DNA from: Candidatus Levybacteria bacterium RIFCSPHIGHO2_01_FULL_41_15
GTDB lineage: Bacteria > Patescibacteriota > Microgenomatia > Levybacterales > UBA12049
Length of the DNA stretch: 64,000 bases
NCBI GenBank assembly: GCA_001782165.1
Contig: MFNV01000009.1
Location: 122,283-186,282, forward strand
Reading direction: 5' to 3'
Under the pieces are notes generated by a model, which ran no database searches, was not told where the DNA came from, and worked only from the letters and a program-made list of their open reading frames with translations. Shown here one piece after another: positions 9,462 through 24,694 of the stretch. Every line of letters starts with the position of its first letter. Position 1 is the first letter of the stretch. The position numbers and the translations under genes are program-made.

Positions 9462-9962
9462 TCAGTAATTTTCACAAAAACTTAAAGTTTTCCTGGGTGG
9501 GGCAAGATAGGGGTTTGGGACATATGGAGAGGTTACTTTAACTTCTAGTTGGCAAGCTTCCTCCCTTTTTACTCCAAGCTTTGTAATAAAAGCCATCTCC
9601 GCATTCAGTCTAGTCTGTGAGGAGGAGGTTGATATATTAATTATAAATTGACTAAATCTTGTTAAGTAAGCAATTTGGAAATCTCCTTCTTTGATAAAAA
9701 GCACGTCTCCTTCACTATTGGTTTGTATGGGGCTTTTTAGGAAATTATTTGTTTTGACACCTGAAATAATTATTTTATCTGATTGGGGGATTCTAGTTCT
9801 CTCCTCTATTTTTGTCGGAGTTGGAATCTCCCCCTCTTGTCTTTTGTGTTTTGAAGGAAAGAAGAGGGAGAGGAAAAAATAAATTAACCCTAGAGCAATT
9901 AGGGTTGAAAAAAGAATGATAGCAATTCTCTTCATAGACCTATTTAAAAACTTATACCACAC
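9462..9962 (-). CDS. small bitopic secreted/membrane protein, unknown (possible VirB8-like accessory)
   Basis: 166 aa with an N-terminal TM (IAIILFSTLIALGLIYFFLSLFF) and a ~120-aa ectodomain. It is adjacent to the T4SS-like hydrolase gene. Confidence 0.35.
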   Translation of the reverse strand: MWYKFLNRSMKRIAIILFSTLIALGLIYFFLSLFFPSKHKRQEGEIPTPTKIEERTRIPQSDKIIISGVKTNNFLKSPIQTNSEGDVLFIKEGDFQIAYLTRFSQFIINISTSSSQTRLNAEMAFITKLGVKREEACQLEVKVTSPYVPNPYLAPPRKTLSFCENY

Positions 9963-11752
9963 TTAGTCAATATGTTTTTTACCGAGAGGCGATCTTCCCG
10001 ATCTGTATCCCAGACACCCCATGGTTCCCAGCTGGCCCAGTTTTCGCGTATTTCACTTGCTTTGAGTATGTTTTGGGTGGGGTTTTTCCAGTTGGACTCG
10101 CAGGCATTTCTCAAAGGAAGGCTTAAAATGTTATCGCAGGACTGATCGCCCCAGGCACCTGCCCCATATGCACCCGAGCAGTGGGCGACTGCATTTATTT
10201 GGAAAAGACCGATGCTGTAGTCGTTGGTTTGGCAATTGTCGTTTATTTTAAATGGATAACCTCCGCTCTCCGACTCGCATATCAAAGATGCGGTAAGGGC
10301 CTTTATCGGATCATTTCCAAAATAGGGCAAAAGATTGGCTACCGAGCAATAACCAGTCCCTTCGTATTGTTGTGTGCATGTGTTGCTTGATGTATTGCTT
10401 GATACAATGCACATTCCAAGTTCCTTGTCTGCCGCAACCCATCCTGGCCGTGTGTCCGTGCTTCCTGCGGGAGCAGATTCTGGATTTGGAATGTCTTTTC
10501 CCATAGAGATATGGACATGATCAATTGCGCTTGATCCAACAATTGTCCCTGAGGGATAAGACCTCCCGGGTTGCAAGCCAGTAAATCCGATGTGGCCTAG
10601 AAATAAAGTCCAGTTCTTGTTCCCTTCTAGATAACTGACAAAAACAAACTCCTTACCGCAGCTTCCATTAACTGGTTTTGTACAGTCATTTTTTTTAAGA
10701 TCAAAACGGTTAGCAAAAACCCAGTTTACACTTTTTCCTTCAATTGCTGGTAGAATTATGTTTTTTCCCTCTGTGGGGACGTCAATTGACTTTGCCCGTC
10801 TCGAGTTTGGGTCGCATTCTACTGGATAATTAGTTCCGCAGTGTCCATTCACAGTATCTGCCTGATATGAACCAAAAGAAACTGTTCCACCTGGAACAGG
10901 GCAGCTTGCAATTGATATAGCCGGATTTGGAGTAGTAGCAGGATTTGCCGACCCGCTACCACCGCCGGTTGCCACGATTATTATTATAACAAAGATAACT
11001 ATTATAAGAATAACTGCAGTAATAATCCATCCCACAGGATTTGATTCTGCAGCGACCACTCCGGTTCCGACGGCAGCTACCCCTCCTGTGGCTGCTGCAG
11101 CACCCGCTCCCGCTCCAACAGCTCCTGCTCCTGCGCCGACTGTTCCCACGCCCACAGCGGCAGTCCCTGCGCCAGCACCTGCTGCTCCGGTCCCTACTCC
11201 AGCAGCACCGACTCCTACTCCAGCTCCCATAGCTGCAGCTTCGCCAGCACCAGCGCCCACGCCTGTAGCAGCTGTGAGGCCTGTTCCTGTACCCACTTCC
11301 AAGCCAGCAGCCGCTCCCACCTCAGCACCTGTGCTAATCCCAACGCCTGCAGCTTCAGCTCCTGCACCAGCGCTAATTGCCTCAACTCCCGCTGACTCTG
11401 CTGTTGCAGTCTCAATAATTGAACCTGCCTCGGTTCCTGCAAGCGGAGCTTCCGTAGTAATTTCTGCCCCAGCGGTTTCAGCGCCAACAGAAGGTTCAAT
11501 GGCTGATTCTTCCGCAACGGCAGTTTCCCCAGGAACCGCAGCTGTTTCAGCTTCTGGGGCAGTTCGGATTTCAGAAGGTGTTTCAACTGCGGTCTCAGTG
11601 GTTTCCTTAATTTCTCCTTTGGTTTTGCCTCGCAGGCGTTTGATAAAATCTACGGCCCTTTTTAAAAACCTATATCTGTCATACCACCTGAAGCCCTTTT
11701 CTATACGACTTTCCTGTCTTTCTTCTTTTGGATTTTCCCCTGTTTTCTCCAT
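9944..11752 (-). CDS. membrane-anchored cell-wall hydrolase: M23/LytM-like + GH23 lytic transglycosylase (VirB1-like), with Ala/Gly/Thr-rich cytoplasmic tail
   Basis: 602 aa. The N-terminal ~230 aa are low-complexity (AG/TG/EA repeats), then one TM (WIITAVILIIVIFVIIIIV). An M23-like block follows (SIDVPTEGKNIILPAIEGKSV ... GHIGFTGLQPG ... HVHISM), then the SLT signature ESESGGYP...YSIGLFQIN. Confidence 0.6.
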   Translation of the reverse strand: MEKTGENPKEERQESRIEKGFRWYDRYRFLKRAVDFIKRLRGKTKGEIKETTETAVETPSEIRTAPEAETAAVPGETAVAEESAIEPSVGAETAGAEITTEAPLAGTEAGSIIETATAESAGVEAISAGAGAEAAGVGISTGAEVGAAAGLEVGTGTGLTAATGVGAGAGEAAAMGAGVGVGAAGVGTGAAGAGAGTAAVGVGTVGAGAGAVGAGAGAAAATGGVAAVGTGVVAAESNPVGWIITAVILIIVIFVIIIIVATGGGSGSANPATTPNPAISIASCPVPGGTVSFGSYQADTVNGHCGTNYPVECDPNSRRAKSIDVPTEGKNIILPAIEGKSVNWVFANRFDLKKNDCTKPVNGSCGKEFVFVSYLEGNKNWTLFLGHIGFTGLQPGRSYPSGTIVGSSAIDHVHISMGKDIPNPESAPAGSTDTRPGWVAADKELGMCIVSSNTSSNTCTQQYEGTGYCSVANLLPYFGNDPIKALTASLICESESGGYPFKINDNCQTNDYSIGLFQINAVAHCSGAYGAGAWGDQSCDNILSLPLRNACESNWKNPTQNILKASEIRENWASWEPWGVWDTDREDRLSVKNILTKCGISF

Positions 11753-11768
11753 AAGTCAATAATGTAAA

Positions 11769-13784
11769 TTAAGTTTTATTAAAAACCGGAGGGGCTTGGG
11801 GCTGCGCAGCTTGCGGTGTAGGGGAGGGAGCTTCGGGGAGAGACTCAGGAGGTGGAGGTTGTTGGGATGGCTGGGAAGGAGCTTGCTCAACAGGATTTTC
11901 CGGAGGGGAAGCAGCTTCCGCCTGCTCCTGCGATTCTTTTTGCTGGATCAATTCCTGAGGGTTTGAGGTTATTATTGTGTGCTCAAAGGGTGCTGCAATA
12001 ACTTTTATCACAACATGACTTTGTCCTGCAAAAAACAAACCTTCTCCTACATCTGATGAAAGAAGAAGCTCTTTTTCTCCTTGTGAAAGGTAAAAAACTT
12101 TTGAGATAAGATCTATTTCTGTAGGAGACTGTTTAAGAAGCATCTGTATTGATGAATTTGATAAAACTGCATTTCCGTAGTCGGTCGATAAGAAATCCTG
12201 AACATCCTGAGTTGCGGTTGTTAAAGCAAGATAATATTTTCGAGCACGTTTTGCGATTCCATAAACAAAAGACGCTGAATCTTCATATTTCATTATATAC
12301 CAGGCCTCATCTAAGACAAGAAGTCTTTTTTTAAGGCTTTTTCTGATTCTTGTCCAGACAAAATCCAAAATAATGTGCATGGCAATGGGGCGAAGTTCAT
12401 CCTCCAAAGCCTTAATTGAAAAAACGGTGAATGGGTTTGTAATATCAAAATTAGACTGCTGATTGAAAATTCCGGAGAGGCTCCCCTTTATAAATTTTTC
12501 AAGCCTTAAGGCAAGTCCTTTTGCTGTCTGATCCTCCATACCAATTAGAACTTTATATAAGTCTTCCATCAAAGGAGGCTGATTTTTTTGAGTCGAAGGA
12601 TCTGCAGTTACCCCTTTTTGTCTATAGGTTTCAACAAGAGCGCGGTCCAAGATTGCATCCTCGCCTGCAGACAGCTCTCCCATGACTATCCGCAAAAGCC
12701 CATGAAGGGAGAGTATTTTAAGCCCCAGCTCATTTTCGCCTTCCTCATAAAGGCCCGAGAGGTCAAATGGATTTATCTTAATCGGATCGGATGGAGTAAA
12801 GGATACATGTTCTCCGCCCAGTGTTTTGGAAAGAGCTTCGTATTCCCCTTCAGGGTCTATTATTATAACTTCGGTCCCAAACATAAACTGTCTTATGGCC
12901 TCAAGTTTTATCAAGTATGACTTTCCTGCACCCGATTTGCCTAATACCACTTCATTTGCGTTTTCCAAAGAATATCTGTCAAAAACTATTAGTGATCCAT
13001 TCTGCTCATTTATTCCATACATGATTCCCTTATCTTGAGTAAGAGTTGCAGATGTGAAAGGGAAAGTAGAGGCAAGAGAAGTTGTATCCATGTTCCTTGC
13101 AATGTAAAGCTTGTCAACACTTTGTGGAAGGCAAGATTTGAATCCTTCTTCCATTTGAAGTGTGGCAGGTTTTGTTATAAGAAGAATAGAGGATAAGGTT
13201 GATGTGAGTTTTTTTGAGGCCACATCAAGATCCTGTATCGTTTCTGAAAAAAGTGTTATGTAAAGACCGAACTGGAAGAATCTTTCGACTCCCTTTGCCA
13301 GTTGTTCCTGAAGCGAAAGAGCATCTTCCAAAGCTGCCTGAACCTTGGGATCAACTATCTTTCCCTCCTCTGTCTGTGACGAGATTGTTGCTTCCATCTC
13401 GGCAATCTTTCTTCGGATATCAGAAAGCACGTCATTTGAGGAAGCAGGGTAGCAAAACATCGAAACATTCATTGAATGATCAAAATCAATAAGAGGAGAA
13501 AGCCAATTGGGCGAAACAAATCTTGGATAACCTACAACAAAAAAGGTCCTGTAATAAAAATCACCTACTCTTATAAAGTTGAAATCTACTTCAACCGAAG
13601 GTGGGGCAATAATATCAAGAAGGGAGGATGTCCCCTTTTCAAGAATTTTGATTCCCTTTGCTTCTATTGTTTTTGCACCCTGCCTGTCCATTTGTCCTGA
13701 GCTCAGGGTTGAAGGACCGGCAGGCAGATCCTGCAAAGGAGTTTGATTATTGGTTTTTTGTTTTTTGAAATTTAAGAATTTCAT
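11769..13784 (-). CDS. virB4: VirB4/TrbE/CagE-family type IV secretion ATPase
   Basis: 671 aa with Walker A VVLGKSGAGKSYLIK, Walker B LLVLDEAWYIM, and an upstream CagE_TrbE_VirB-like region (RVGDFYYRTFFVVGYP). The C-terminal tail is Pro/Gln-rich. Confidence 0.85.
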   Translation of the reverse strand: MKFLNFKKQKTNNQTPLQDLPAGPSTLSSGQMDRQGAKTIEAKGIKILEKGTSSLLDIIAPPSVEVDFNFIRVGDFYYRTFFVVGYPRFVSPNWLSPLIDFDHSMNVSMFCYPASSNDVLSDIRRKIAEMEATISSQTEEGKIVDPKVQAALEDALSLQEQLAKGVERFFQFGLYITLFSETIQDLDVASKKLTSTLSSILLITKPATLQMEEGFKSCLPQSVDKLYIARNMDTTSLASTFPFTSATLTQDKGIMYGINEQNGSLIVFDRYSLENANEVVLGKSGAGKSYLIKLEAIRQFMFGTEVIIIDPEGEYEALSKTLGGEHVSFTPSDPIKINPFDLSGLYEEGENELGLKILSLHGLLRIVMGELSAGEDAILDRALVETYRQKGVTADPSTQKNQPPLMEDLYKVLIGMEDQTAKGLALRLEKFIKGSLSGIFNQQSNFDITNPFTVFSIKALEDELRPIAMHIILDFVWTRIRKSLKKRLLVLDEAWYIMKYEDSASFVYGIAKRARKYYLALTTATQDVQDFLSTDYGNAVLSNSSIQMLLKQSPTEIDLISKVFYLSQGEKELLLSSDVGEGLFFAGQSHVVIKVIAAPFEHTIITSNPQELIQQKESQEQAEAASPPENPVEQAPSQPSQQPPPPESLPEAPSPTPQAAQPQAPPVFNKT

Positions 13785-14446
13785 ACCTGACTCCCCATTT
13801 TTATAATAGGGGTTTTAAGCTCATCGGTTATTTGATTAGTTTCGATGAGGGATCCGTTGAAGATCTCATAAAAAAGTTTGACCAGCTCTTCCTTCTGAAG
13901 AGTTTTTGCGCGAAGACCTAATCTTGCAAGCTGTGAGTGAACGGAGTCTCCCTTGGAATGAAGAGCTGCCTTTGCCTCTTCAAAAAAGGAGTCTTCGGAT
14001 ATTTGACCGGGCATAGCTTTTTTGGCTGCCCCAACCCCCTTTTCAAGATAGGAATATGGAATAACAATATAAAATTTTTTGTCAAGTACCGTATTTACTT
14101 TGACCAGCTCTCTTATAAAATCCCGGTAAAGCCTTATCTGGGAAGATAAAAGCTGATTTGTTGACCCCTGAGCCTGCTCTTCCAAAAGTTTTAAATAAGA
14201 GGAGATATCAAGCTTTTTGCTTCTTATAAATATCTGAATCGGGAAAGATAGGGAATTAAGAAGAGAAGCATAGGAAAAAACTTTTGTGTCCTGTTCTTCT
14301 TTTGAAAGAAGAGAGAAATTCGTGGCATTGACCTCAATTATAAAACAGGCATTTTTACCCGATAATATAACTATGTCCTCTTCGATTCCCTCAATTTCTA
14401 TAAATTTTTGCGTTGTTGCTCTCTTTTTTTGGGCAGTTTTAGTCAT
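13781..14446 (-). CDS. cytoplasmic T4SS-associated protein, unknown (resembles a VirB4 N-terminal domain)
   Basis: 221 aa with no TM. It is translationally coupled (4-nt overlaps) between the PrgI-like gene and virB4. The segment IEIEGIEEDIVILSGKNACFIIEVNATNFSLLSKEEQDTKVFSYASLLNSL resembles the N-terminal region of VirB4/TraC proteins. Confidence 0.35.
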   Translation of the reverse strand: MTKTAQKKRATTQKFIEIEGIEEDIVILSGKNACFIIEVNATNFSLLSKEEQDTKVFSYASLLNSLSFPIQIFIRSKKLDISSYLKLLEEQAQGSTNQLLSSQIRLYRDFIRELVKVNTVLDKKFYIVIPYSYLEKGVGAAKKAMPGQISEDSFFEEAKAALHSKGDSVHSQLARLGLRAKTLQKEELVKLFYEIFNGSLIETNQITDELKTPIIKMGSQV

Positions 14447-15654
14447 GATTTTTGAACGGGATTAAATAATTCTCTTCTAAGTTCTTCTCTTTTGTCAATT
14501 GAAATTATTTCAAGAGGCATTAAAACTTCACCTCTGGCTTCTATCTCAATAGTATCAAATTTATGTTCTCCCTTGGGATCTTCAAAAAATATAGTGTAAA
14601 CTCCGTTACCTAAGGGGGTTGCCGAAGCAAATTGACCTAAGACATTTGTTTTGAATGCTCTTACAGGATTTCCTTCCTCGTCTTTCACCTCAACAAGTAT
14701 ATTAGGAAGAGGATTATTTCTTGAGTCTTTTGCTATTCCCATAACCAAGTTTGGAACATCGGGAATAAAAGGGAGTCCTGCAGTTTTACTCAATTCTCTC
14801 GGAATTCTTCTTGCATGTTTTGTTTCAGGCTTGGGAGTTATAGTTGAGGGACTATAAATATTTTTTCCCTGCATCTTAAGTTTTTTTCTAAGCTCTATTA
14901 TTTGATTCTCCAAAATTTGTTTTTGTGAAGTCACCTCGCTTAAGACCTTTTCAATCTCAAGAATTTTTTGGTGGGCCATTTGGTATTGTTCTCCCGTCTC
15001 CTGTTTTTTTTCCAGATCCTTGGCTTCCTCAAGCTCTTTCTTGAGAACATCAGCCTTTTTGTCAAGCTCTTTTTCTTCCTCTTTTTTTTTGCCTTCGTCT
15101 GTTAAATTTACATTCTCTCTGATCTGATCTTCAAATATCTTTTCATAACCTCCCAAATTCTCCGATATGTCAGTTGGGGATCCTTTGCTCAAAGAAAGAA
15201 GAGAATTTAAAAAATTAAGCTCTTTTTCATCCAATTTATCTTTTGGTTTTTGGGGAAGATTTTTTAAAAACTCTTTAAGTTTTTGGGTGGAATCGGATGA
15301 AGTCATAAGCTTAGATACTGTTTGTACTTGACTTTCCTTGGGTGGCTTGGGGAACCACATATGACCACCTATTTTCTGATATATATACTGAGTTGGATTA
15401 AATAAAGCTTTTATGTAATTTGAAATCATAAGATCAAACGGCCGACCCTCAATAGGAACAAACGCCGCTCCCACCCCCAGGCCTACAAAAAGAAGAACGA
15501 GGGGGATTTTTATAAGGATAAAAATCGGGAGCGCAAAAGTTATCCAGCCTAGGACAACTCCTGTCGCAAGATAGGCAAATTGCTTAATGGTCATGTCCCC
15601 TATCAGCTTAAACTGAAAACCTGTAATATCTTGGGGAATAGGATGATTTTCCAT
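14443..15654 (-). CDS. PrgI/VirB3-like membrane protein fused to coiled-coil and C-terminal beta-sandwich domain
   Basis: 403 aa. N-terminal region (MTIKQFAYLATGVVLGWITFALP... then a second TM) resembles PrgI/VirB3-type small T4SS membrane components located directly upstream of VirB4. A K/E-rich coiled coil follows, and the C-terminus looks like a carboxypeptidase-regulatory-like fold. The true start is probably the Met at MTIKQ. Confidence 0.4.
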   Translation of the reverse strand: MENHPIPQDITGFQFKLIGDMTIKQFAYLATGVVLGWITFALPIFILIKIPLVLLFVGLGVGAAFVPIEGRPFDLMISNYIKALFNPTQYIYQKIGGHMWFPKPPKESQVQTVSKLMTSSDSTQKLKEFLKNLPQKPKDKLDEKELNFLNSLLSLSKGSPTDISENLGGYEKIFEDQIRENVNLTDEGKKKEEEKELDKKADVLKKELEEAKDLEKKQETGEQYQMAHQKILEIEKVLSEVTSQKQILENQIIELRKKLKMQGKNIYSPSTITPKPETKHARRIPRELSKTAGLPFIPDVPNLVMGIAKDSRNNPLPNILVEVKDEEGNPVRAFKTNVLGQFASATPLGNGVYTIFFEDPKGEHKFDTIEIEARGEVLMPLEIISIDKREELRRELFNPVQKS

Positions 15655-15964: not shown

Positions 15965-16342
15965 CTAATTGCAGTTTCCGAAGCCGAATTGTTTTATGCA
16001 GGAGACGCCAGTCAAAGCGCTTATAAAGTTTATTATTGCAAATGAAAGGAGAATTACAACAAGACCGATAATCGCATACGTAAGAGTTTCCCTTGCTTCT
16101 TTTACTTTATCCTCTGTTCCGCCTGACCTTATGTATTTGATTCCCGACCAGATGATGAAAAAAAGAGCTACTATTCCTCCTCCGACAAGCGCCCAGTTAA
16201 TAACATTCTGAAACACAGTCGGAATACACTGAAGAGTTGCGACGCTGTCTTTTACGCAATCTCCCCAGTCAACACCGGGAATGGTAATTCCGCCCCCTCC
16301 TCCGCCTGGAGGCGGAGGCAGTTTGGCAAGAAGTTTATCCAT
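15965..16342 (-). CDS. VirB2/TrbC-like T4SS pilin paralog 1
   Basis: 125 aa with two TM helices flanking IWSGIKYIRSGGTEDKVKEARETLTYAIIGL, a motif shared by all four paralogs. The N-terminus has a PPPPGGGGGG run. Confidence 0.6.
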   Translation of the reverse strand: MDKLLAKLPPPPGGGGGGITIPGVDWGDCVKDSVATLQCIPTVFQNVINWALVGGGIVALFFIIWSGIKYIRSGGTEDKVKEARETLTYAIIGLVVILLSFAIINFISALTGVSCIKQFGFGNCN

Positions 16343-16401
16343 AGTTTTAGATTAGCAAGAAAATTTTAAAAAAACAAGGAAAGATAGAGAAACTCTAAAT
16401 T

Positions 16402-16800
16402 TTACTGGAGCTTTAATGTGGGAAGAGTGAAGGTGGTTATGGTTTTACCGAGGAAGAATCCGACGACAAGATTCAAAATGAAGTATGCCAAAAAGACTAT
16501 TACAAGGCCGACGACTGCGGCAACAATCGTGTTTCTTGCAGCTTCGACATTAGTTTTATCTCCACCCGACAGAATCCACTTAATCCCTCCCCAAATTAAG
16601 AACCCTAATGCAATAAGAACCGCAAGTATGAAAAGAAGGGTAATAACATTTCCGACTACGTTCCCAAAATTACTTGATGTGAGTTTGCAAAGACCGGCGA
16701 AGTCGCCTGTGGGACAAGTGTCAACTGTATCAGCAAAAGCCAAAGCTGGGGAGAGAAGATAAGATGAAAATGCGGCTGTTGTAGCAATTAATTTTTTCAT
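16402..16800 (-). CDS. VirB2/TrbC-like T4SS pilin paralog 2 (with signal peptide)
   Basis: 132 aa with signal peptide MKKLIATTAAFSSYLLSPALAFA and the pilin core LIWGGIKWILSGGDKTNVEAARNTIVAAVVGL. Confidence 0.65.
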   Translation of the reverse strand: MKKLIATTAAFSSYLLSPALAFADTVDTCPTGDFAGLCKLTSSNFGNVVGNVITLLFILAVLIALGFLIWGGIKWILSGGDKTNVEAARNTIVAAVVGLVIVFLAYFILNLVVGFFLGKTITTFTLPTLKLQ

Positions 16801-16887
16801 CTTTAATTAAATGCTATATAGATTTTCACAGTTTGTCAAGCCCCGATTTAACAATTGAGCAATGGAACAATAGAGCAATTGGATTTT

Positions 16888-17196
16888 CTAGAAAATCCTT
16901 ATATTAAAGAATCCGAAAATAAAGTTTATCATAAAAAATGAAAAAAAAGCAATAATCAAACCTACAACAGAATAAGTCAGTCTAAGTCTTGCCTGTTCAA
17001 TTCTTTGTTTATCTCCGCCTGATGTTATCCATTGAATTCCTGCCTGAATCATATAAAAAAGAGCAAGAAAAATCGCCGCAAGAAGAAGCAAAGTAACTCC
17101 TCCCTGAATGATTTTTGAAATGTTCCCTCCTGTTGGAACCTCGCTAGGCGGCTCAATTTCCCGCCCTCCTATTGTAATAGCTATTTTATTTAACAT
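16888..17196 (-). CDS. VirB2/TrbC-like T4SS pilin paralog 3
   Basis: 102 aa with core MIQAGIQWITSGGDKQRIEQARLRLTYSVVGL. Confidence 0.6.
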   Translation of the reverse strand: MLNKIAITIGGREIEPPSEVPTGGNISKIIQGGVTLLLLAAIFLALFYMIQAGIQWITSGGDKQRIEQARLRLTYSVVGLIIAFFSFFMINFIFGFFNIRIF

Positions 17197-17250
17197 TTCT
17201 TATTTATCATTGATCATTAAAATCGTAAATTATAAATCATCAATCACGTT

Positions 17251-18180
17251 TTATTTTATAAAGTCTGGAATGCGTAAAATGTTAAATCCGATTACTTGAA
17301 GAATCACAAAGGAGAATATTATAAAAACAAGCCCTATTATCGCGGCAATTAGCTGATCCCGCGCTGCCTCCAAAGCTTCAGGTTTGCCCCGCGCTGCTAT
17401 AAGCTGATATCCCGAATAGATTATGAGAAGAAGTGCCAGTCCTCCTGAAAGAGAAAGAATAATACCAAAGATTGATTTTATAAGACCCGATGGATCTGTG
17501 CCAATATCTATTCCAAGGCCGGTTGTTACAGAAGTGCAGATTTTTATTTGTTTTTCATCTGTGGTTAAATTCCCTTCTTTATCAAATCCCTTGGAACAGG
17601 GTGGAGGAGGGGGGCTGGGATCAGGTTCTTCGGGTTTTGGCTTATCTGACTGAGGAGAGCAAATTGTATCATATTTCTCAATTTCCAACGTCCATGTCTG
17701 CAGAATTGTTTTTTTAAACTTATCCTTATCAAGGTTGGCTACTAACCCGCATGAATAAACCTTACACTCAGAATTAGCTGGATCGCAGAGTTGGGAATAA
17801 AGACATCTGTCATTATCAGTTAAACCAGAATCATCTCCGCATTTGCCATCAGAAGATATAGGAGGAAGACATCTATACACTCCGTCATTTTCCCTGCAGT
17901 TAAATTCCTGACATCCTGCATCTGTGCAGGGCTGGGTTGACAGGCAAAACGGCGAATTTTCATCGTTGCATTCTATAGGGGAGTTATAAGGATTCGTTTG
18001 GGGGGCAGGGCCTCCGCCTGTATCTCCTGTCTCTACTGCCAAAGAGGGCGGGGGTTTGAAAATTAAAATAAGGAGAATTATTACAACAACTCTTAGAATT
18101 TGTCCCACAATTTTATAGTAGACAAGTTGAGAATACTTTGCAAGAGCCGTCAAGCTATGCTTGGAATTTTCAATTTTCAA
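17251..18180 (-). CDS. Cys-rich ectodomain fused to C-terminal VirB2/TrbC-like pilin domain
   Basis: 309 aa. An N-terminal TM anchor is followed by a ~170-aa domain with ~22 Cys and a PPPPP linker. The C-terminal 70 aa are a pilin core (IIYSGYQLIAARGKPEALEAARDQLIAAIIGL). The start is a TTG embedded in a 7-nt x4 tandem repeat, so the 5' boundary is uncertain. Confidence 0.55.
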   Translation of the reverse strand: MKIENSKHSLTALAKYSQLVYYKIVGQILRVVVIILLILIFKPPPSLAVETGDTGGGPAPQTNPYNSPIECNDENSPFCLSTQPCTDAGCQEFNCRENDGVYRCLPPISSDGKCGDDSGLTDNDRCLYSQLCDPANSECKVYSCGLVANLDKDKFKKTILQTWTLEIEKYDTICSPQSDKPKPEEPDPSPPPPPCSKGFDKEGNLTTDEKQIKICTSVTTGLGIDIGTDPSGLIKSIFGIILSLSGGLALLLIIYSGYQLIAARGKPEALEAARDQLIAAIIGLVFIIFSFVILQVIGFNILRIPDFIK

Positions 18181-18266: not shown

Positions 18267-19619
18267 TTATGGTGTAAATTTTATTCCTCTTCCCTTAATT
18301 GTTTGCAAGTGAGATGGATTATTGGGGTCGTCTTCTATTTTTTTTCGAAGGCGAAAGATTAGCTGATCCAGAGCTTGATCGGTTACTCCTTCTGTTGATT
18401 TTGAATTTTTCCACACGGCGTTTATTACTTCCTCCCTTTCTACAATTTTATCTTTATTCTCAATCAGGAACTTAAGGAGCTTAAATTCGGAAGAGGTCAG
18501 AATATCAGAAAGGATACTATCTCCCTTTTTTATCTCGTTGGTGATAGGGTCAAACGAAATGACTTGATTACCCAATTGTTCGATTACCGTGATGAATTTT
18601 TCAAAAAGGGGAATTGAGATTTTACTGTTTTCTATTAATCCAACGTTTTGTAAATAGCCACTAGAAATTAGTTGGTTAGCAATTAGTGATTTCTGTTCGG
18701 AAGGTGTTAAGGAATACAAAATCTCATAAAGAGAACCTCTTATCGTTTTTTGCTCAAGCAAAAAACTCTGTAACCCTATTCTGGTTGCTAGTTGCCAATT
18801 GCTAGTCGCTAATCTTGTCTCAAGACAAAGCCTTGTTAATTTTCCGTGGCCTGCGGTTAGTGAAATTATTTTGTTAGTTAGTTTTTCGTTTATTCTTTTA
18901 CCGCTTACTTTTTCAAGGTATGAGATTCGGAAATCAAGACCGGGCTTGTCAAATAGCGGTAAATAAACGATGTTTCCTGCCAAAAATTCATAAAAATCCG
19001 AGAAAAGCATTGGTTCTATCAAATCCTCAAGGGGTCTATTAAGAGAAAAAACAACAGAGAATCTGTATTTTGCCCTGTTTCTCAAGATTCTAAGATTGGC
19101 AAAAAATTCAGATGAGAGCATTGGTACATATTCTTCAAATCTGTCAAACAGAAAGACTACTGTAAGTTCTTTCTCAATACAAAGGTAATCAATTGCTTTT
19201 TTAAGGCCCCCAAACAAAACCATCTCGTCATTGGTCAGAAGCGATTCTTTGAAAATCTTATCCATGGTTTCATGTTCCTGCATTTTTCTTTCTCTTAATG
19301 AATCAACAAGTGAAAGGAAGATGAATTTTGTTGCCTCAAATAAGGGCTTTTTTCTAATCTCCGAAAAATTTAAGAGGACAAAATGAAACCATTTCTGGTC
19401 TTCTCCTAAATGTTTTAACCGGACAGTGCGGTTATAAGATAAAAGACCCAAAAGATTTGATCTTCCAACCCCGGGAAGACCAATAAGCTGAGCCGATTTT
19501 CCTTCCTTTGCAAACCTTAAGATTTTTTCTATTTCATCAAATCTTGAATTTTCAGGGTATAATGATTCGAAATGAGCCAGTTCACTACCATCGACCATTG
19601 ATGATTTATTATTTACCAT
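18267..19619 (-). CDS. putative transcriptional regulator: N-terminal P-loop NTPase-like (STAND/AAA-like) + C-terminal OmpR/PhoB-type winged helix
   Basis: 450 aa. A degenerate Walker A (LIGLPGVGRSNLLGLL) and hhhhD (VVFLFDRFEE) sit at the N-terminus. The C-terminal ~95 aa (SSEFKLLKFLIENKDKIVEREEVINAVWKN...ALDQLIFRLRKKIEDDP...LQTIKGRGIKF) is a clear trans_reg_C wHTH. Confidence 0.55.
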   Translation of the reverse strand: MVNNKSSMVDGSELAHFESLYPENSRFDEIEKILRFAKEGKSAQLIGLPGVGRSNLLGLLSYNRTVRLKHLGEDQKWFHFVLLNFSEIRKKPLFEATKFIFLSLVDSLRERKMQEHETMDKIFKESLLTNDEMVLFGGLKKAIDYLCIEKELTVVFLFDRFEEYVPMLSSEFFANLRILRNRAKYRFSVVFSLNRPLEDLIEPMLFSDFYEFLAGNIVYLPLFDKPGLDFRISYLEKVSGKRINEKLTNKIISLTAGHGKLTRLCLETRLATSNWQLATRIGLQSFLLEQKTIRGSLYEILYSLTPSEQKSLIANQLISSGYLQNVGLIENSKISIPLFEKFITVIEQLGNQVISFDPITNEIKKGDSILSDILTSSEFKLLKFLIENKDKIVEREEVINAVWKNSKSTEGVTDQALDQLIFRLRKKIEDDPNNPSHLQTIKGRGIKFTP

Positions 19620-19694
19620 GTTTGTTAAATTACAAATTCAAAATTACAAATAACAAATAATTGCAAAGTTATAAATACAAAATTCAAAACAACT

Positions 19695-20057
19695 TTATCT
19701 ACTTTTTTCTAAGATTGCAGCAAAAATTTTAACAAGCTCGGTAGTTTCTTGCAATAGTGGAGTAATCTTATTCTTGAGTTCCGGGTTTGCCTCTTCGATC
19801 AATTGTAACCAGTAAATTGTTTCTTTTCCTTCTTTTCTGCAGATTCTAATTCTAAATGAGAAATCTTTCTTTGTTTCTGTTTCATTTGCTTCTCGATAGT
19901 TAGCACCCATAGAAGTTCCGGAACGAATAACTTGATCGCACAAATTAAAGTTAATTGTGTTTTTCGGCAAGTCTTTAGCTAAGTGAATAATTTTTTTTCC
20001 AAATTCAAGCGTTCTATCTTCTAAATCGTACTTTTTATTATTTTGGTTATTTGACAT
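19695..20057 (-). CDS. four-helix-bundle protein (23S rRNA intervening-sequence protein family)
   Basis: 120 aa; the motif ...QVIRSGTSMGANYREANETETKKDFSFRIRICRKEGKETIYWLQL... is typical of the PF05635/TIGR02436 family. Confidence 0.6.
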   Translation of the reverse strand: MSNNQNNKKYDLEDRTLEFGKKIIHLAKDLPKNTINFNLCDQVIRSGTSMGANYREANETETKKDFSFRIRICRKEGKETIYWLQLIEEANPELKNKITPLLQETTELVKIFAAILEKSR

Positions 20058-20180
20058 TTTAATTTATTTGGAACTTGTAATTTTGTACTTGTAATTTTCC
20101 TTACTACGTAAGGATATTGTAATCTTCTTGAAAGCTAATTATCAAGCGCTTCGGCTTCGCTAAGTGTAAACTTCCCTCGT

Positions 20181-22961
20181 ATGAAAGAGTTTGATTTGAC
20201 AGGCAGAGCTAATCGCCCTACACTTGAAGTGAAGGGAGATATTTTTATGTCAGAACCCGGACAAAGAGAACAGCCGCCAAAACAGCTCGAACCTGCCTCT
20301 GGAGCTGGTGGAGGATCTCCGCCAGAAAAACCACCAATCACTACATCCGGAGAAGCAAATGGCAATGGGGAAGATTCTGGTGAACAGGCGCCAAATATAA
20401 AGACCGGCCCTGCGAAATGGAAAAACAAAGATAATGATCAGCCTATTGTTGTTACAGAGTATGCAGGTAAAGGTCCAGACGGTAAAGATTATGTCAATAT
20501 TGAAGGAAGCGAAACCAGTGTTCCTCTTGATGAAATAGAATATCCACAAGAAGAAATTCCAGCTGCAGGCGCAGGCGGAGGAGAGCCTCCCGAAGAACCC
20601 CCAGAGGTAGTAACTGCAGAAGAACCTGGGGAGAGTGACGGTGGTGAGGATCGTGGGGAAATTAAAGAATATATAAAGGCATTAAATAAGTTATTGTCAG
20701 ATGAAGAAGTAAGAAGGGTATTGATTTCGGATAACCCAGACTTTGATCAGCTCCCTCAGCTAGAAGAATTTATAAGAAAGTACATGAGTCCTGCAGACAG
20801 GAGCGGAAAGATAGGCCATTTTGCTAGATTTGTTACCGGAAAAGATAATGATTTTTCTTCTACATCAAAGAAGCTTATATTCGAGCGTTTACTTGAAAAA
20901 ATTATAGGCATGACAGATAAAACTCCCGATAGGCCATATCATGCTGATTCGGGCAATATATATGTTTCATCCAACTTACAAGAGCTACTTGAAGTAGCAA
21001 GGGCAAATTTGGCTGAAGATTTTCCATATTTCGGAAACCTTGCTTATGTAAGAGAAGTTGCTCATGAATTGAATAGAAATCTTAAATACGGGGAGCAATA
21101 CAAAAAATATGTAACAGAAAGTTTGCGTACCGGGGGACTTAATTTTATGCATAATAGAATTGCAGGTGTAAGTGCAGTTATAAGAGAGTATGAAAGAATA
21201 AGTTCATACAGAATAAGACAAGTAAAAACCTGGTTTTCAGAAAAGGATATAAGGGCAATAGACAGTGAGGTAGAAGAGATGATAAAAGATCATTCGAGAG
21301 AAGAAATGAAGATAGGTAATAGGAAATTATCAGATTGGGAGATTGAAAGGGCTTTAAAAATAGGTAAAATTCTCTTTGCAGGAAGCCAAAGACTGGCCGC
21401 GTATGCTGCTGCAGGGGATCTTCCTCACGACGCGTTGCTTACTGGACGATTTGGATCTGTTCCCTATGAATATATAGCAAGATCTTTATTTCCATTCAAA
21501 ATGACTTCCCCAAGGTTTTTTGCTGGAGCAGGAGGTTCAAGAAGATACATGGAGAGAATATTTGAAGAACAAAAGAAAGATAGCCCGTGGTTTGATGAGA
21601 AAGAAAAAAAATCAAAGCTTTATTCTCTCTTTGGACTTGATGAAAGAACCATCCTTATGGATAGTTGCGGAGCTATGGATTCTCAGACTCAGGCATGGAG
21701 AGCGGAAATGATGTTTTTGGGAGCCATTACGATGAACATAGACGGAGAACACGTTAACTTACTGGATTACTTGAATGAGTTTGCTGTTCTACACGGTGGA
21801 AAATCAGGAGATCCTAAGGATCAGATTCTGGGTGGAAGGGGCGTTGATGAGAAGGAAAGACCAAATTTTTCAAAAGACGTTAGAAATGTAGTAATGGGTC
21901 AAAGATTATATTTATCTAATCTTGCTCGATACGGAAATTTTGATGACGTCCTAAAAGCGGATATCTGGCAAAAAATTAGTCTTCTTACTCCATCAACAAT
22001 AGCATCTGTGGTTCCCAGAGCCATCGGCAAAGAAGATGAGAAAATATGGGAGCAGATGCGATATAAACTATATGCCGCTGAGAATAAAAGAATAAACAAT
22101 GATTCAGTAAGGTACAGGAAAGGGTTAACAAATGATGATTTAAAGGGCGAAAATGAAAAATTCAGTAAGGTTTTAGAAACTGTAAAAAAAGATGTTTGGA
22201 CAGAAGGAGATTTTGATACAATTTTGGAATATATGGGGATGGGAGAGCTGAAGCTAGAGATAGATGAGAAGAAATTACTGAAAAAAATAATAACAGCTGG
22301 TATAGAAGAGTCAGAGAAGCTTGGTAGGGCAAAACTTCCCTTTGCGTTTGCGATTGTCGATGCGCCTGAAGTAGCATGGTCTAAAACAGAGGATGGGACT
22401 GGAGGACTTGAGGATGAAGATTTGCTAAGGATACTTTTAAGTGATCAGGAATCATTTTCCAAGGCATGGACAGAAATGAACGGTCTAATAGAAAACCCAA
22501 CCGCAGGTTTACGAGAACATACAGCAAAAGCAGTTGAAGGAATAGGAATGGTAATAGGCAGAAAAAGCGCACAGGAAATAATTCGCCCATTTATAATAGC
22601 TTATATTAAGATGGCATCTACTACGCCTTCTTCAGAATGGATAGGCGATTTTCAAAAACTTCTTAGGCAAGCTACGTCAGAAATGGAAAGGTATTATAGA
22701 AATTCCCACATATCGTGGGATGCTAAAGAGAGAGAAATAACTCTTGAAGGAATGTCTCAAGATGGCTCAATCTCTGATGATATTTCTGAAGGAAATATAT
22801 CTGATCTAGATAAAGTTAAGAAGAAAACAAAATCGACCAGAAGAGCAACTTTTCTTAGAATGGCAAGATTAATAATTATGTTACTAGGTCCGGAGGCAGG
22901 TATATCATTTCTTAAACTTTTTGTGCCACAAGATTTACTAAACTCTTTACAAAAAAAATAA
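20181..22961 (+). CDS. large cytoplasmic protein of unknown function with disordered repeat-containing N-terminus
   Basis: 926 aa with no TM and no recognisable catalytic motif. The N-terminal 170 aa are acidic/Pro-Gly rich with a duplicated AGAGGG(S/E)PPE(K/E)PP unit. The start is possibly the downstream Met (MSEPGQ). Confidence 0.45.
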   Translation: MKEFDLTGRANRPTLEVKGDIFMSEPGQREQPPKQLEPASGAGGGSPPEKPPITTSGEANGNGEDSGEQAPNIKTGPAKWKNKDNDQPIVVTEYAGKGPDGKDYVNIEGSETSVPLDEIEYPQEEIPAAGAGGGEPPEEPPEVVTAEEPGESDGGEDRGEIKEYIKALNKLLSDEEVRRVLISDNPDFDQLPQLEEFIRKYMSPADRSGKIGHFARFVTGKDNDFSSTSKKLIFERLLEKIIGMTDKTPDRPYHADSGNIYVSSNLQELLEVARANLAEDFPYFGNLAYVREVAHELNRNLKYGEQYKKYVTESLRTGGLNFMHNRIAGVSAVIREYERISSYRIRQVKTWFSEKDIRAIDSEVEEMIKDHSREEMKIGNRKLSDWEIERALKIGKILFAGSQRLAAYAAAGDLPHDALLTGRFGSVPYEYIARSLFPFKMTSPRFFAGAGGSRRYMERIFEEQKKDSPWFDEKEKKSKLYSLFGLDERTILMDSCGAMDSQTQAWRAEMMFLGAITMNIDGEHVNLLDYLNEFAVLHGGKSGDPKDQILGGRGVDEKERPNFSKDVRNVVMGQRLYLSNLARYGNFDDVLKADIWQKISLLTPSTIASVVPRAIGKEDEKIWEQMRYKLYAAENKRINNDSVRYRKGLTNDDLKGENEKFSKVLETVKKDVWTEGDFDTILEYMGMGELKLEIDEKKLLKKIITAGIEESEKLGRAKLPFAFAIVDAPEVAWSKTEDGTGGLEDEDLLRILLSDQESFSKAWTEMNGLIENPTAGLREHTAKAVEGIGMVIGRKSAQEIIRPFIIAYIKMASTTPSSEWIGDFQKLLRQATSEMERYYRNSHISWDAKEREITLEGMSQDGSISDDISEGNISDLDKVKKKTKSTRRATFLRMARLIIMLLGPEAGISFLKLFVPQDLLNSLQKK

Positions 22962-22963
22962 AA

Positions 22964-24694
22964 TTATCCTACGCCGAATCTTCGACCGAATGCTCGTAGT
23001 TTTCCGACTTTGCCGTAACTTACCCTTCCTGTTGCTTGATCATAACCTGCCAATCTATATTCCTCAGAACCGGCTATAGTTTGACCTACACCCTTAGCTA
23101 CAGAAATTGGGTAACCTGCTCCCGCTCCAACTGCGGCACCGATTGAGGAGAGGTCGATTTTGGGTGCCTTGAGAGCTTCTCTTAATGTTGTTACAATTCT
23201 TGGCGCAGTCAATATGATTCCAAGGGCAATTATTGCGCCGAAACGCTCTCCATTGGGGTTTCCTATAAAAGGCGGCACGAACATGTCTCCCCCTCCTGCA
23301 TCAAAAAGATGCATAAAAGTCTCTCCCAGAAGGAAAAGAACAAGAGTTGCCGGGAAAGCCGCAAGGTTTGAAATAAGACTTCTGAGCCAGGAGGTAAAGC
23401 TGATTGTACTTCCCGGGAAAAGTCCTGCGACAATCCAGAAAGGCGCAAATACTATGTCTATGAGAATCATTATATAGGCCTGAAGAAGGATAAACCAGAG
23501 TCTAAACAGCGCCCAGAGAATTGCAATAAGAATCACCAGAAATGCAATTATACCGGCCAACCCTCCGATTACGATCTTCCCAGCATAGTTTGTAAGGTCG
23601 CACGCTCCTCCTCCAAATAACCCAAAACCAGAAGTTATAAAATTGAGGGCTCCGCTTAAAAAACCTCCCACAACAGGAAGACTTTCAAAAATCGCACAAG
23701 TACTCCCCGCAACCGCACCAATAGGCCCGGCAAGTATGAAACCAAGTACTGCGGTTATAATACTGCCTAAATAAGTAGTAAAAAGACCTGGGGTGAGACT
23801 GGCTATTATATTACCCACACTATAAGAAGCATTAAACGCAACTGTAAAAATATTAAATGTATCATGCGCAACACTAAAAGGAGAAGTATATAGCCGCGGA
23901 ACATCGTGTTCAAAGATATTTAGGATCAAATATAGGGCGACATACATAAGGTCAATAAGAAAAGCTGCAATTGCAAGAGAGAATGTCACAAGAAGTATCC
24001 CTATAATTAATTTGGGTATTTGGTTCTGCAAAGTCATGACAGTTCGCGGATCTATTTTTACCCTAAGCATTATTGCAACTCCTATAATCACAAAGACAAG
24101 GACAAACAGAAGATATACAATGTCTCTGAATTTACTCCAAAGAGGAATAAGAGGAGAGACTCTGGAGACGCCAAGTCCTGTATTCTGGGCATAAGTACTT
24201 TTTGCTATCCCAAAATTTTGAGCAAGATCTTTCATATAGTCTGCCGCGTGAACAGGAGCCGTATAGAGCATACCGATCATGCCTCCCATAAAACCCACTG
24301 CTCCTCCACCGCCTTCAACAAAGCCGATACTTCCGGTCTTAGGATCAACACCGAGGCATTTTTGTGAGACATTTGTCGGATCAATTCCCGAAAGCTGGCA
24401 GACAAGAGCGGACATTACTTCTATCATCACACTTTGGGTATAAGTATGAAGGTTTTTTGGGACATCAGGATTTGTGTTGGGGGCAGCGTAGGGATTGGTT
24501 TGGTTATTTTGGTAATTGGGTAGATTGGAGTTCGGAATGCTTACTGTCTGAGCAAAAGTTGGGGATTTAAAAATTAAGAATGAAAAAATAAAAAATAAAA
24601 AAACCAAAATAAGATACGGGCCCCACTTCGTTAAAACTTCCACCGTCGCTAAGGCTTTGGCGGACAAGTCGCGGGGCAAGGCAGGAAGTCTCAT
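22964..24694 (-). CDS. polytopic membrane protein, VirB6/TrbL-like candidate
   Basis: 576 aa with a signal/TM start and then ~8-10 TM helices with Gly-rich loops. Its size and topology fit the VirB6/PrgH-class channel subunits usually encoded with VirB4 systems. Confidence 0.4.
   Translation of the reverse strand: MRLPALPRDLSAKALATVEVLTKWGPYLILVFLFFIFSFLIFKSPTFAQTVSIPNSNLPNYQNNQTNPYAAPNTNPDVPKNLHTYTQSVMIEVMSALVCQLSGIDPTNVSQKCLGVDPKTGSIGFVEGGGGAVGFMGGMIGMLYTAPVHAADYMKDLAQNFGIAKSTYAQNTGLGVSRVSPLIPLWSKFRDIVYLLFVLVFVIIGVAIMLRVKIDPRTVMTLQNQIPKLIIGILLVTFSLAIAAFLIDLMYVALYLILNIFEHDVPRLYTSPFSVAHDTFNIFTVAFNASYSVGNIIASLTPGLFTTYLGSIITAVLGFILAGPIGAVAGSTCAIFESLPVVGGFLSGALNFITSGFGLFGGGACDLTNYAGKIVIGGLAGIIAFLVILIAILWALFRLWFILLQAYIMILIDIVFAPFWIVAGLFPGSTISFTSWLRSLISNLAAFPATLVLFLLGETFMHLFDAGGGDMFVPPFIGNPNGERFGAIIALGIILTAPRIVTTLREALKAPKIDLSSIGAAVGAGAGYPISVAKGVGQTIAGSEEYRLAGYDQATGRVSYGKVGKLRAFGRRFGVG

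Follow-up and report, generated by a model that had tools for sequence, protein, structure and literature searches.

Within a 64,000-nucleotide (nt) stretch of the Candidatus Levybacteria bacterium RIFCSPHIGHO2_01_FULL_41_15 genome (contig MFNV01000009.1, positions 122,283 to 186,282; the whole stretch is referred to as the window), a type IV secretion system (T4SS) locus contains a gene for a 926-amino-acid (aa) protein, here called the target (20181..22961, + strand). When the target is compared with its relatives, it is apparent that it is an undescribed component of the T4SS locus, specific to the Levybacteria/Microgenomates lineage; the locus type is itself known, and no relative of the predicted fold of this component was detected. 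With its open reading frame (ORF), 213 family representatives and an AlphaFold2 (AF2) model as evidence, it is taken here as the founding member of a T4SS-locus family not described before. It evolves in the manner of a host-interface or cargo protein, unlike a machine subunit. We tentatively read the target as a variable protein engaged by the T4SS, either a substrate, a translocator or a host-interaction protein.

Pairing with a VirB6-like gene and divergence of the target

The family was delimited by an exhaustive HMMER search with a profile built from word-indexed relatives, in which counts are representatives of 50%-identity clusters. This returned 213 representatives at E≤1e-3 and 91 at E≤1e-30, mostly 850-1150 aa in length and matching over their full length. 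Only an exhaustive profile search makes the family visible, because word-indexed homologue searches found just 7-8 relatives. An earlier first-pass annotation of the window had called the target an orphan, a description that the 213 cluster representatives and the fixed position of the gene in 12/12 loci contradict. A scan of a genome collection with the family gave one locus, in a Levybacteria metagenome-assembled genome (MAG), and this single genome match and the named relatives all belong to Candidatus Levybacteria (Microgenomates group). To our knowledge, no member of the Microgenomates has been cultivated.

The loci examined (the window counted among them) comprise those of homologues at 59%, 43%, 27% and ~20-25% identity, two that were reached through the VirB6-like neighbour, and the Levybacteria MAG; individual loci are given L numbers where they must be told apart. 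In 12/12 loci a family member is convergent with a VirB6-like gene of 538-609 aa. The gap between the two stop codons is 0-21 nt, with a 4-nt overlap in L011. The two members reached from the neighbour's side match the family profile at 3e-46 and 9e-240. A regulator gene and a pilin array adjoin the pair wherever the contig reaches that far, and the regulator is conserved beside the target in L004, L007 and L011-L016. In L001 the pair is intact, and ~5 kb of unrelated genes lie between it and the visible pilin and M23 peptidase genes; since the pair persists there away from the other visible T4SS genes, the conserved unit is the target together with the VirB6-like gene.

In the window, the neighbour (22964..24694, - strand) encodes a polytopic membrane protein of 576 aa that is VirB6/TrbL-like, contains eight or more hydrophobic segments and has more than 780 homologues; the gene ends 2 nt from the target's stop codon. 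Scanned against Pfam, this protein itself gives no match at E≤1; PF04610 has been assigned by precomputed annotation to two relatives that are 52-53% identical to it, so that calling it VirB6-like, as the first-pass annotation did, is reasonable on the basis of this similarity. The VirB6-like family is too divergent for standard profiles. The target also lies where that annotation had placed it, between a regulator and pilin side, with a Trans_reg_C protein and four T4SS_pilin genes, and the 576-aa polytopic protein. Scanning for terminators gave no site between the stops of the convergent pair, and neither the junction at 22959-22966 nor those in L001, L004, L007, L009 and L011-L014 leave room for an intergenic terminator. 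With 0-21 nt between the stops and no space for a terminator, the convergent transcripts probably overlap at their 3' ends.

The constancy of this arrangement is set against a marked divergence of the target itself. Across the same loci, identity to the window is 75-83% for VirB4, 58-74% for TrsD, 49-74% for the regulator, 49-64% for PrgI, 38-64% for the VirB6-like protein and 39-73% for the pilins, and falls to 22-59% for the target, whose counterpart in L009 is not significant by BLASTP against the window. Mean identities from all-against-all comparison of nine loci are as follows: VirB4 80%, TrsD 67%, regulator 58%, PrgI 50%, VirB6-like 48% and target core 30%. The target is thus the most divergent syntenic gene compared, exceeding even the pilins.

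Between loci, the distances of the machine genes co-vary, with Spearman coefficients of 0.71-0.89, whereas the target core gives -0.11 to 0.32 against each of them; the coefficient between the target and the VirB6-like gene is 0.22, and the distances of the VirB6-like gene track the machine genes. Most target pairs are 23-35% identical, near saturation, which lowers these rank correlations, but the comparison of the window with L004 and L007 is independent of saturation: VirB4 is 84% identical in every pair of the three, whereas the target of the window shares 60% identity with its L007 counterpart and 32% with that of L004. The target sequences fall into types ({window, L007, L001}, {L009, L011, L012} and {L004, L013}) that cut across the VirB4 relationships. 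The target is hypervariable, and its evolution is decoupled from that of VirB4, TrsD, PrgI and the VirB6-like gene.

Protein architecture and the duplicated N-terminal unit

The reading frame at 20181..22961, with an ATG start and 926 aa, was confirmed. Two antisense ORFs lie inside or overlap it (20135-20428 and 20250-20549, <100 aa each); neither has any support, and the + frame is conserved in homologues down to ~20% identity, in agreement with their earlier dismissal as artefacts. An AF2 model built with a 65-sequence alignment reached a mean predicted local distance difference test score (pLDDT) of 87.9 and a predicted template modelling score (pTM) of 0.81. The target has three parts, namely an N-terminal peptide of ~35 aa, a variable acidic disordered linker and an all-alpha core of ~770 aa. 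The first-pass annotation had described a large soluble protein with a disordered acidic N-terminus and no recognisable motifs, and this picture stands: residues 1-170 are acidic (net charge -19) and consist of Gly to 14% and Pro to 12%, the pLDDT is below 50 at residues 1-67 and 125-152, and the protein has no signal peptide, canonical transmembrane (TM) helix or match to a curated family.

The N-terminal peptide (aa 1-35, 20181..20285, + strand) follows the pattern MKE..LT-x(6-16)-G-x-IFM-x-E-x-G and is modelled with a pLDDT below 45, and yet M1, L6, T7, M23 and P33 are conserved at 88-97% in the 65-sequence alignment. In a six-frame translation of 297 kb (the window and 16 loci) the motif occurs 14 times, every one of them at the N-terminus of a family member. 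It is a candidate docking or recognition peptide. We rejected the idea that it is a signal common to several proteins, as none outside the family carries it in the 297 kb, and also its resemblance to a type IV prepilin-like signal (G|F..E), as no hydrophobic helix follows the motif.

The linker ranges from tens of residues to ~640 across the family. In the target it holds two copies of a short motif, GAGGGSPPEKPP (20301..20336, aa 41-52, + strand) and GAGGGEPPEEPP (20568..20603, aa 130-141, + strand), the second directly before the folded core. These belong to two units of ~45 aa, the duplication seen in the first-pass annotation, which align with a BLOSUM62 local score of 100; 2000 composition-preserving shuffles gave 33.8 ± 6.3 with a maximum of 59, and 0/2000 reached 100. 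The copies use different synonymous codons at 7/10 of the codons for identical residues, which makes this an old duplication kept by selection on the peptide and not a recent DNA repeat. About 10% of the full-length relatives, distant ones included, also carry the motif GGGEPPEEPP in their linker, usually just before the core, and in the 64-kb window it is found in the target protein only. The target thus has two defined peptides, the N-terminal LT..G.IFM.E and GGGEPPEEPP.

The linker of the target also contains a small beta module of three strands (aa ~66-122, 20376..20546, + strand; pLDDT ~92), an optional insert found in only 6 representatives. It sits between the two proline-rich motifs and has the consensus ATWKNKDxDQPIVVTGYxGKGxDGRDYVSIEGSxTGIPLDEIEFP. 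Its copies are 57-74% identical, exceeding the core identity of the same proteins, which suggests that the module is a shuffled or strongly constrained insert.

The all-alpha globular core (aa ~155-926, 20643..22958, + strand) comprises ~35 helices, mostly with a pLDDT above 90. In all, 61 core positions are conserved at 80% or more; G329, R404, D727, R750 and D755 are invariant, and H295, E387, R390, E430, R445, R507, K629 and E696 are conserved at 90% or more. No internal repeats could be detected in the core, and an ARM/HEAT-type alpha-solenoid was rejected for that reason.

The core ends in a basic tail (aa 876-926, 22806..22958, + strand) that is modelled as helical (pLDDT 77-93) and contains a hydrophobic hairpin of the form helix-Gly-Pro-helix, RLIIMLLGPEAGISFLK, which is conserved. 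Net charge is +9 over the last 51 residues against -25 for the whole protein, and the same polarity holds across the family (medians of +4 for the last 50 residues and -17 for the whole). Considered as a candidate C-terminal T4SS translocation signal, for which the first-pass annotation had suggested a test, the tail has the positive charge but a predicted helical structure, where an unstructured, positively charged or otherwise recognisable signal would be expected. The last ~40 residues contain the sole strongly hydrophobic stretch of the target (Kyte-Doolittle hydropathy, KD19 = 1.86). We considered a C-terminal TM anchor and rejected it: a TM helix was taken to require ~18 or more uninterrupted hydrophobic residues, whereas within the final 70 residues of family members the longest run without D, E, K, R, N, Q or H is 11 residues at the median and never exceeds 16. 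Away from the C-terminus, only 1/126 full-length relatives has a hydrophobic segment, and that a weak one. The target has no Sec or Tat signal peptide, its N-terminus being polar and disordered, and reading its sequence revealed no P-loop motif GxxxxGK[ST].

Cysteine content was considered in the same context. The target has 1 Cys in 926 residues and 69/126 relatives have none, while Sec-exported proteins of the T4SS locus, all encoded on the - strand, are unusually rich in it: the pilin-domain protein of 309 aa (17251-18180) and the SLT_3 hydrolase (9944-11752) have 14 Cys apiece, and a 125-aa pilin (15965-16342) has 4. The Cys richness of the exported proteins suggests disulfide-stabilised extracellular components, and the Cys-poor target fits a cytoplasmic protein or translocation in an unfolded state, not Sec export. 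As a sign of secretion, however, Cys depletion is weak, since the cytoplasmic proteins of this genome are likewise Cys-poor (0-0.5% Cys).

Searches for known relatives were negative. Neither the target nor 15 distant or long relatives gave a match in Pfam, NCBIfam, PHROGs or PADLOC; hits to MkoB (E=0.009, 13 bits, no stretch passing) and HD_assoc_2 (E=0.087) were set aside as noise. Against PDB sequences, the single protein and the 65-sequence profile retrieved only low-complexity artefacts (TBP poly-Q, huntingtin), and no significant sequence or fold similarity was found to any deposited PDB chain, solved T4SS components and effectors included. Foldseek against BFVD returned nothing at E≤1e-3. 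A TrbL/VirB6 (PF04610) identity for the target itself was likewise dropped, as it has no Pfam match at E≤1 and its hydrophobic stretch is too short. Within the searches made, the predicted fold of the target appears to be without a known relative. A housekeeping-enzyme hit, which the first-pass annotation had named as the result that would speak against its proposal, was returned by none of the sequence and fold searches. An origin in a mobile element was rejected, because tblastn against plasmids and phages found no homologue of the target and the window otherwise carries chromosomal housekeeping genes (dnaA, dnaN, penicillin-binding proteins, PGK and RNR).

The surrounding locus and the upstream repeats

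The window is a low-GC chromosome segment starting near dnaA and dnaN. The T4SS genes on the target's upstream side all lie on the - strand: a VirB1-like SLT_3 hydrolase (9944-11752), VirB4 (11769-13784), a TrsD/TraC-like gene (13781-14446), a PrgI/VirB3-like gene (14443-15654) and an array of four VirB2-like T4SS_pilin genes (15965-18180). No coupling protein was found in the window and no relaxase nearby. The SLT_3 protein starts with ~230 low-complexity residues of Ala, Gly, Thr and Glu, continues with a single TM helix and then has a hydrolase part that is rich in Cys (14 residues); its low-complexity region accounts for a local GC of 0.50 against ~0.38 elsewhere.

Between the pilins and the target are two further genes on the - strand. 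The 450-aa regulator (18267-19619) has a C-terminal winged helix (Trans_reg_C in Pfam) and a long N-terminal region with a Walker-A-like GLPGVGRSNLLG; judged by these features it may couple transcriptional control to an NTPase, unlike a classical response regulator. The second gene (19695-20057), divergent from the target, encodes a 23S_rRNA_IVP/bAvd-like four-helix bundle. Genes of this type (PF05635, some with a weak PF22296) are interspersed in the loci (L001, L004, L007, L009, L011, L012, L013 and L015) at one to three per locus, and the target homologue usually has one of them as its immediate upstream neighbour, in divergent orientation.

The intergenic region upstream of the target (20058..20180) contains TGTAA direct repeats and a TATCAAG element, both of which are conserved upstream of homologues. 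In L001, L004/5, L007, L009, L011, L012 and L013 the TGTAA repeats likewise precede TATCAAG, ~45-55 nt ahead of the start codon. In the window, a repeat of the form TGTAATTTTG-N4-TTGTAA lies upstream of the target (20076-20094, + strand), and a second copy lies immediately upstream of the regulator gene (19630..19648, - strand). The spacing is identical at both sites, and the pattern has 3 matches in the window against 0.78 expected. The adjacent Trans_reg_C regulator may use these repeats as operators. A portion of the pattern could also be read as a sigma-70-like promoter on the - strand, TTGATA-18-TACAAT at 20145-20116, serving the divergent gene.

Candidate roles and known systems

The first-pass annotation had proposed a secreted substrate or effector, or else a scaffold. 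Three observations favour a role that is variable and either host-facing or translocated: no other gene of the locus evolves as fast as the target, its distances do not follow those of the machine genes, and both its ends are conserved. Its strict single-copy synteny with the VirB6-like gene fits a machine adaptor equally well. In the role that we tentatively favour, the target would be made in the cytoplasm, as it has neither a Sec/Tat signal nor a canonical TM helix, and its conserved termini would dock it onto VirB4/TrsD or onto the VirB6-like channel. The diversifying core would then be presented to the channel or passed through it, so that the target would be a variable substrate, a translocator or a factor in host interaction that belongs to the secretion system itself, contributing to the host specificity of the epibiont while the core diversifies under host pressure. 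Such a role would explain the rate of change, the incongruence with the machine genes, the presence of a conserved peptide in a disordered region, the basic tail and the missing Sec signals. Docking through the termini, engagement of the channel and export are steps that we infer. According to the available text of three reports, patescibacterial T4SS loci generally lack a relaxase and a nearby coupling protein, S. epibionticum depends on its T4SS, and no substrate is known for the system (PMC10633639, PMC12102498, PMC12857230); a protein with such a role would fit a T4SS without a known substrate (PMC10633639, PMC12857230). A 2026 preprint about how hosts defend themselves against Saccharibacteria deals with the Esx system of the host and has no bearing on the target.

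A stricter form of this proposal, which we regard as conceivable but unlikely, is that the family is a dedicated cargo or translocator, recognised by its N-terminal peptide and basic tail and passed through the VirB6-like channel to end up on or inside the host cell, where the fast-evolving core would set host range. If this were true, the target would be the first identified substrate of the patescibacterial T4SS, a system essential in the one species tested. Several points weigh against a substrate or translocator role. Secretion of the target is itself our inference, and we know of no validated secretion-signal model for monoderm T4SSs and of no precedent for an N-terminal T4SS signal. The window holds no coupling protein that could recruit a substrate, and because no other protein in the 297 kb carries the N-terminal motif, it is not a signal common to several substrates. 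In addition, a single copy, a fixed position, a constant size and 61 core positions conserved at 80% or more are more typical of a machine subunit, and near-saturated target distances by themselves lower the correlations.

The main rival, which we consider a serious possibility, if a somewhat doubtful one, is that the target is a structural adaptor or scaffold retained in the cell and bound to the cytoplasmic face of the VirB6-like channel, or reaching VirB4/TrsD through its N-terminal peptide, or both, and serving as a platform, gate or assembly factor. By analogy, such an adaptor would functionally resemble the helical hydrophilic domains of 'extended' VirB6 proteins, here encoded separately. 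The pairing with the VirB6-like gene in 12/12 loci, including L001 where the other visible T4SS genes are set apart, argues for it, as do the single copy and constant size of a protein whose core is conserved over its full length and which lacks a signal peptide or TM helix. It is also consistent with the S. epibionticum T4SS having two ~1000-aa membrane proteins with C-terminal ARM-like helical domains, while the VirB6-like protein here has only 576 aa. However, tightly bound subunits normally co-evolve, and the target is the most divergent protein of the locus, beyond even the extracellular pilins, with distances independent of those of its presumed partners; moreover, no fusion to a VirB6-like membrane domain was seen among the 126 full-length relatives.

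The discrete target types that are incongruent with VirB4 might instead be taken to mean that the target is a specificity or exclusion determinant. It would then be a cytoplasmic protein that varies, partners the VirB6-like protein and decides self/non-self recognition or host range without being cargo, much as TraG (an extended VirB6) and Eex form exclusion pairs in SXT/R391 and F-type systems. The tight linkage to the VirB6-like gene, the second most divergent of the six non-pilin genes compared (38-64%), would agree with this. We nonetheless judge it improbable, since known exclusion proteins are small membrane proteins or lipoproteins whereas the target has 926 aa and no TM helix, the VirB6-like distances follow the machine genes and not the target (Spearman 0.22), and a need for exclusion in these bacteria is not established. 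Very improbable, finally, is an enzyme or other cytoplasmic protein that is unrelated to secretion and merely linked to the locus. An active site could be built from the invariant polar residues R404, D727, R750 and D755 together with the eight that are conserved at 90% or more, but no enzyme family is matched by sequence or fold, linkage to the T4SS is conserved down to ~20% identity while flanking housekeeping genes vary, and such extreme divergence would be unusual for a housekeeping enzyme. The target is a concrete candidate for what the patescibacterial T4SS handles or uses to engage its host.

Among known T4SS proteins, the type IV coupling proteins (VirD4/TraG/TcpA) are those whose 'missing receptor' role the target would fill, and they are likewise cytoplasmic with a membrane-proximal end. 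We rejected the target as a coupling protein, since it has no P-loop, no coupling-protein match in Pfam or NCBIfam and no N-terminal TM helices, and its fold is all-alpha and not RecA-like. A parallel may be drawn with effectors of the CagA type. CagA is a large, mainly helical, fast-evolving effector encoded in its T4SS locus, with a fold that has no relatives and a disordered region that contains short repeated motifs. The target is alike in size class, in its mainly helical fold without relatives, in its disordered repeat motifs, in being encoded in a T4SS locus and in its rapid diversification. There is no sequence or fold similarity between the two, however; the disorder is N-terminal in the target and C-terminal in CagA, the target belongs to a monoderm system without a nearby coupling protein, and its secretion is putative.

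The extended VirB6 proteins (SEML1_0011 and SEML1_0013, the Rickettsiales VirB6 paralogues and F-plasmid TraG) likewise have a large helical non-membrane module genetically tied to a VirB6 channel. Essential T4SS proteins of Saccharibacteria include such modules, annotated as ARM-like (PMC12857230). According to the available text of PMC10633639, SEML1_0011 and SEML1_0013 are large (~1000 aa) membrane proteins of the essential S. epibionticum T4SS with C-terminal ARM-like helical domains; in its Table S2 the top fold match of SEML1_0013 is TrbL/VirB6 and that of SEML1_0011 is a 'type IV secretion system protein'. The module represented by the target differs in being a separate gene on the opposite strand, in being about three times larger (770 vs ~250-280 aa) and in having no detectable repeats and, among the 126 full-length relatives, no fusion to a membrane domain, the SEML1 domains being known here by the annotation table alone.

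The locus as a whole is most like those of other Patescibacteria. Their T4SS loci are described, in the available text of a survey, as MPF-FATA-like and located near dnaA, with pilin arrays and TrsD and generally without a relaxase or a nearby coupling protein (Quinonero-Coronel et al. 2025, PMC12102498). The window matches such a patescibacterial (candidate phyla radiation, CPR) locus in VirB4, TrsD, PrgI/VirB3, the VirB1-like hydrolase and the VirB2-like pilins (PMC12102498; Wang et al. 2023, PMC10633639), and in its position next to dnaA/dnaN with no relaxase or coupling protein nearby (PMC12102498, PMC10633639). The target family is without mention in the available text of these two accounts of the locus (PMC12102498, PMC10633639). 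VirB6 was reported there as 'scarce' in Microgenomatia (PMC12102498), although a VirB6/TrbL-like gene is present in Levybacteria-type genomes, which belong to this class. What sets the present loci apart is that they contain this VirB6/TrbL-like gene, and that it is always accompanied by an additional soluble protein of ~900 aa.

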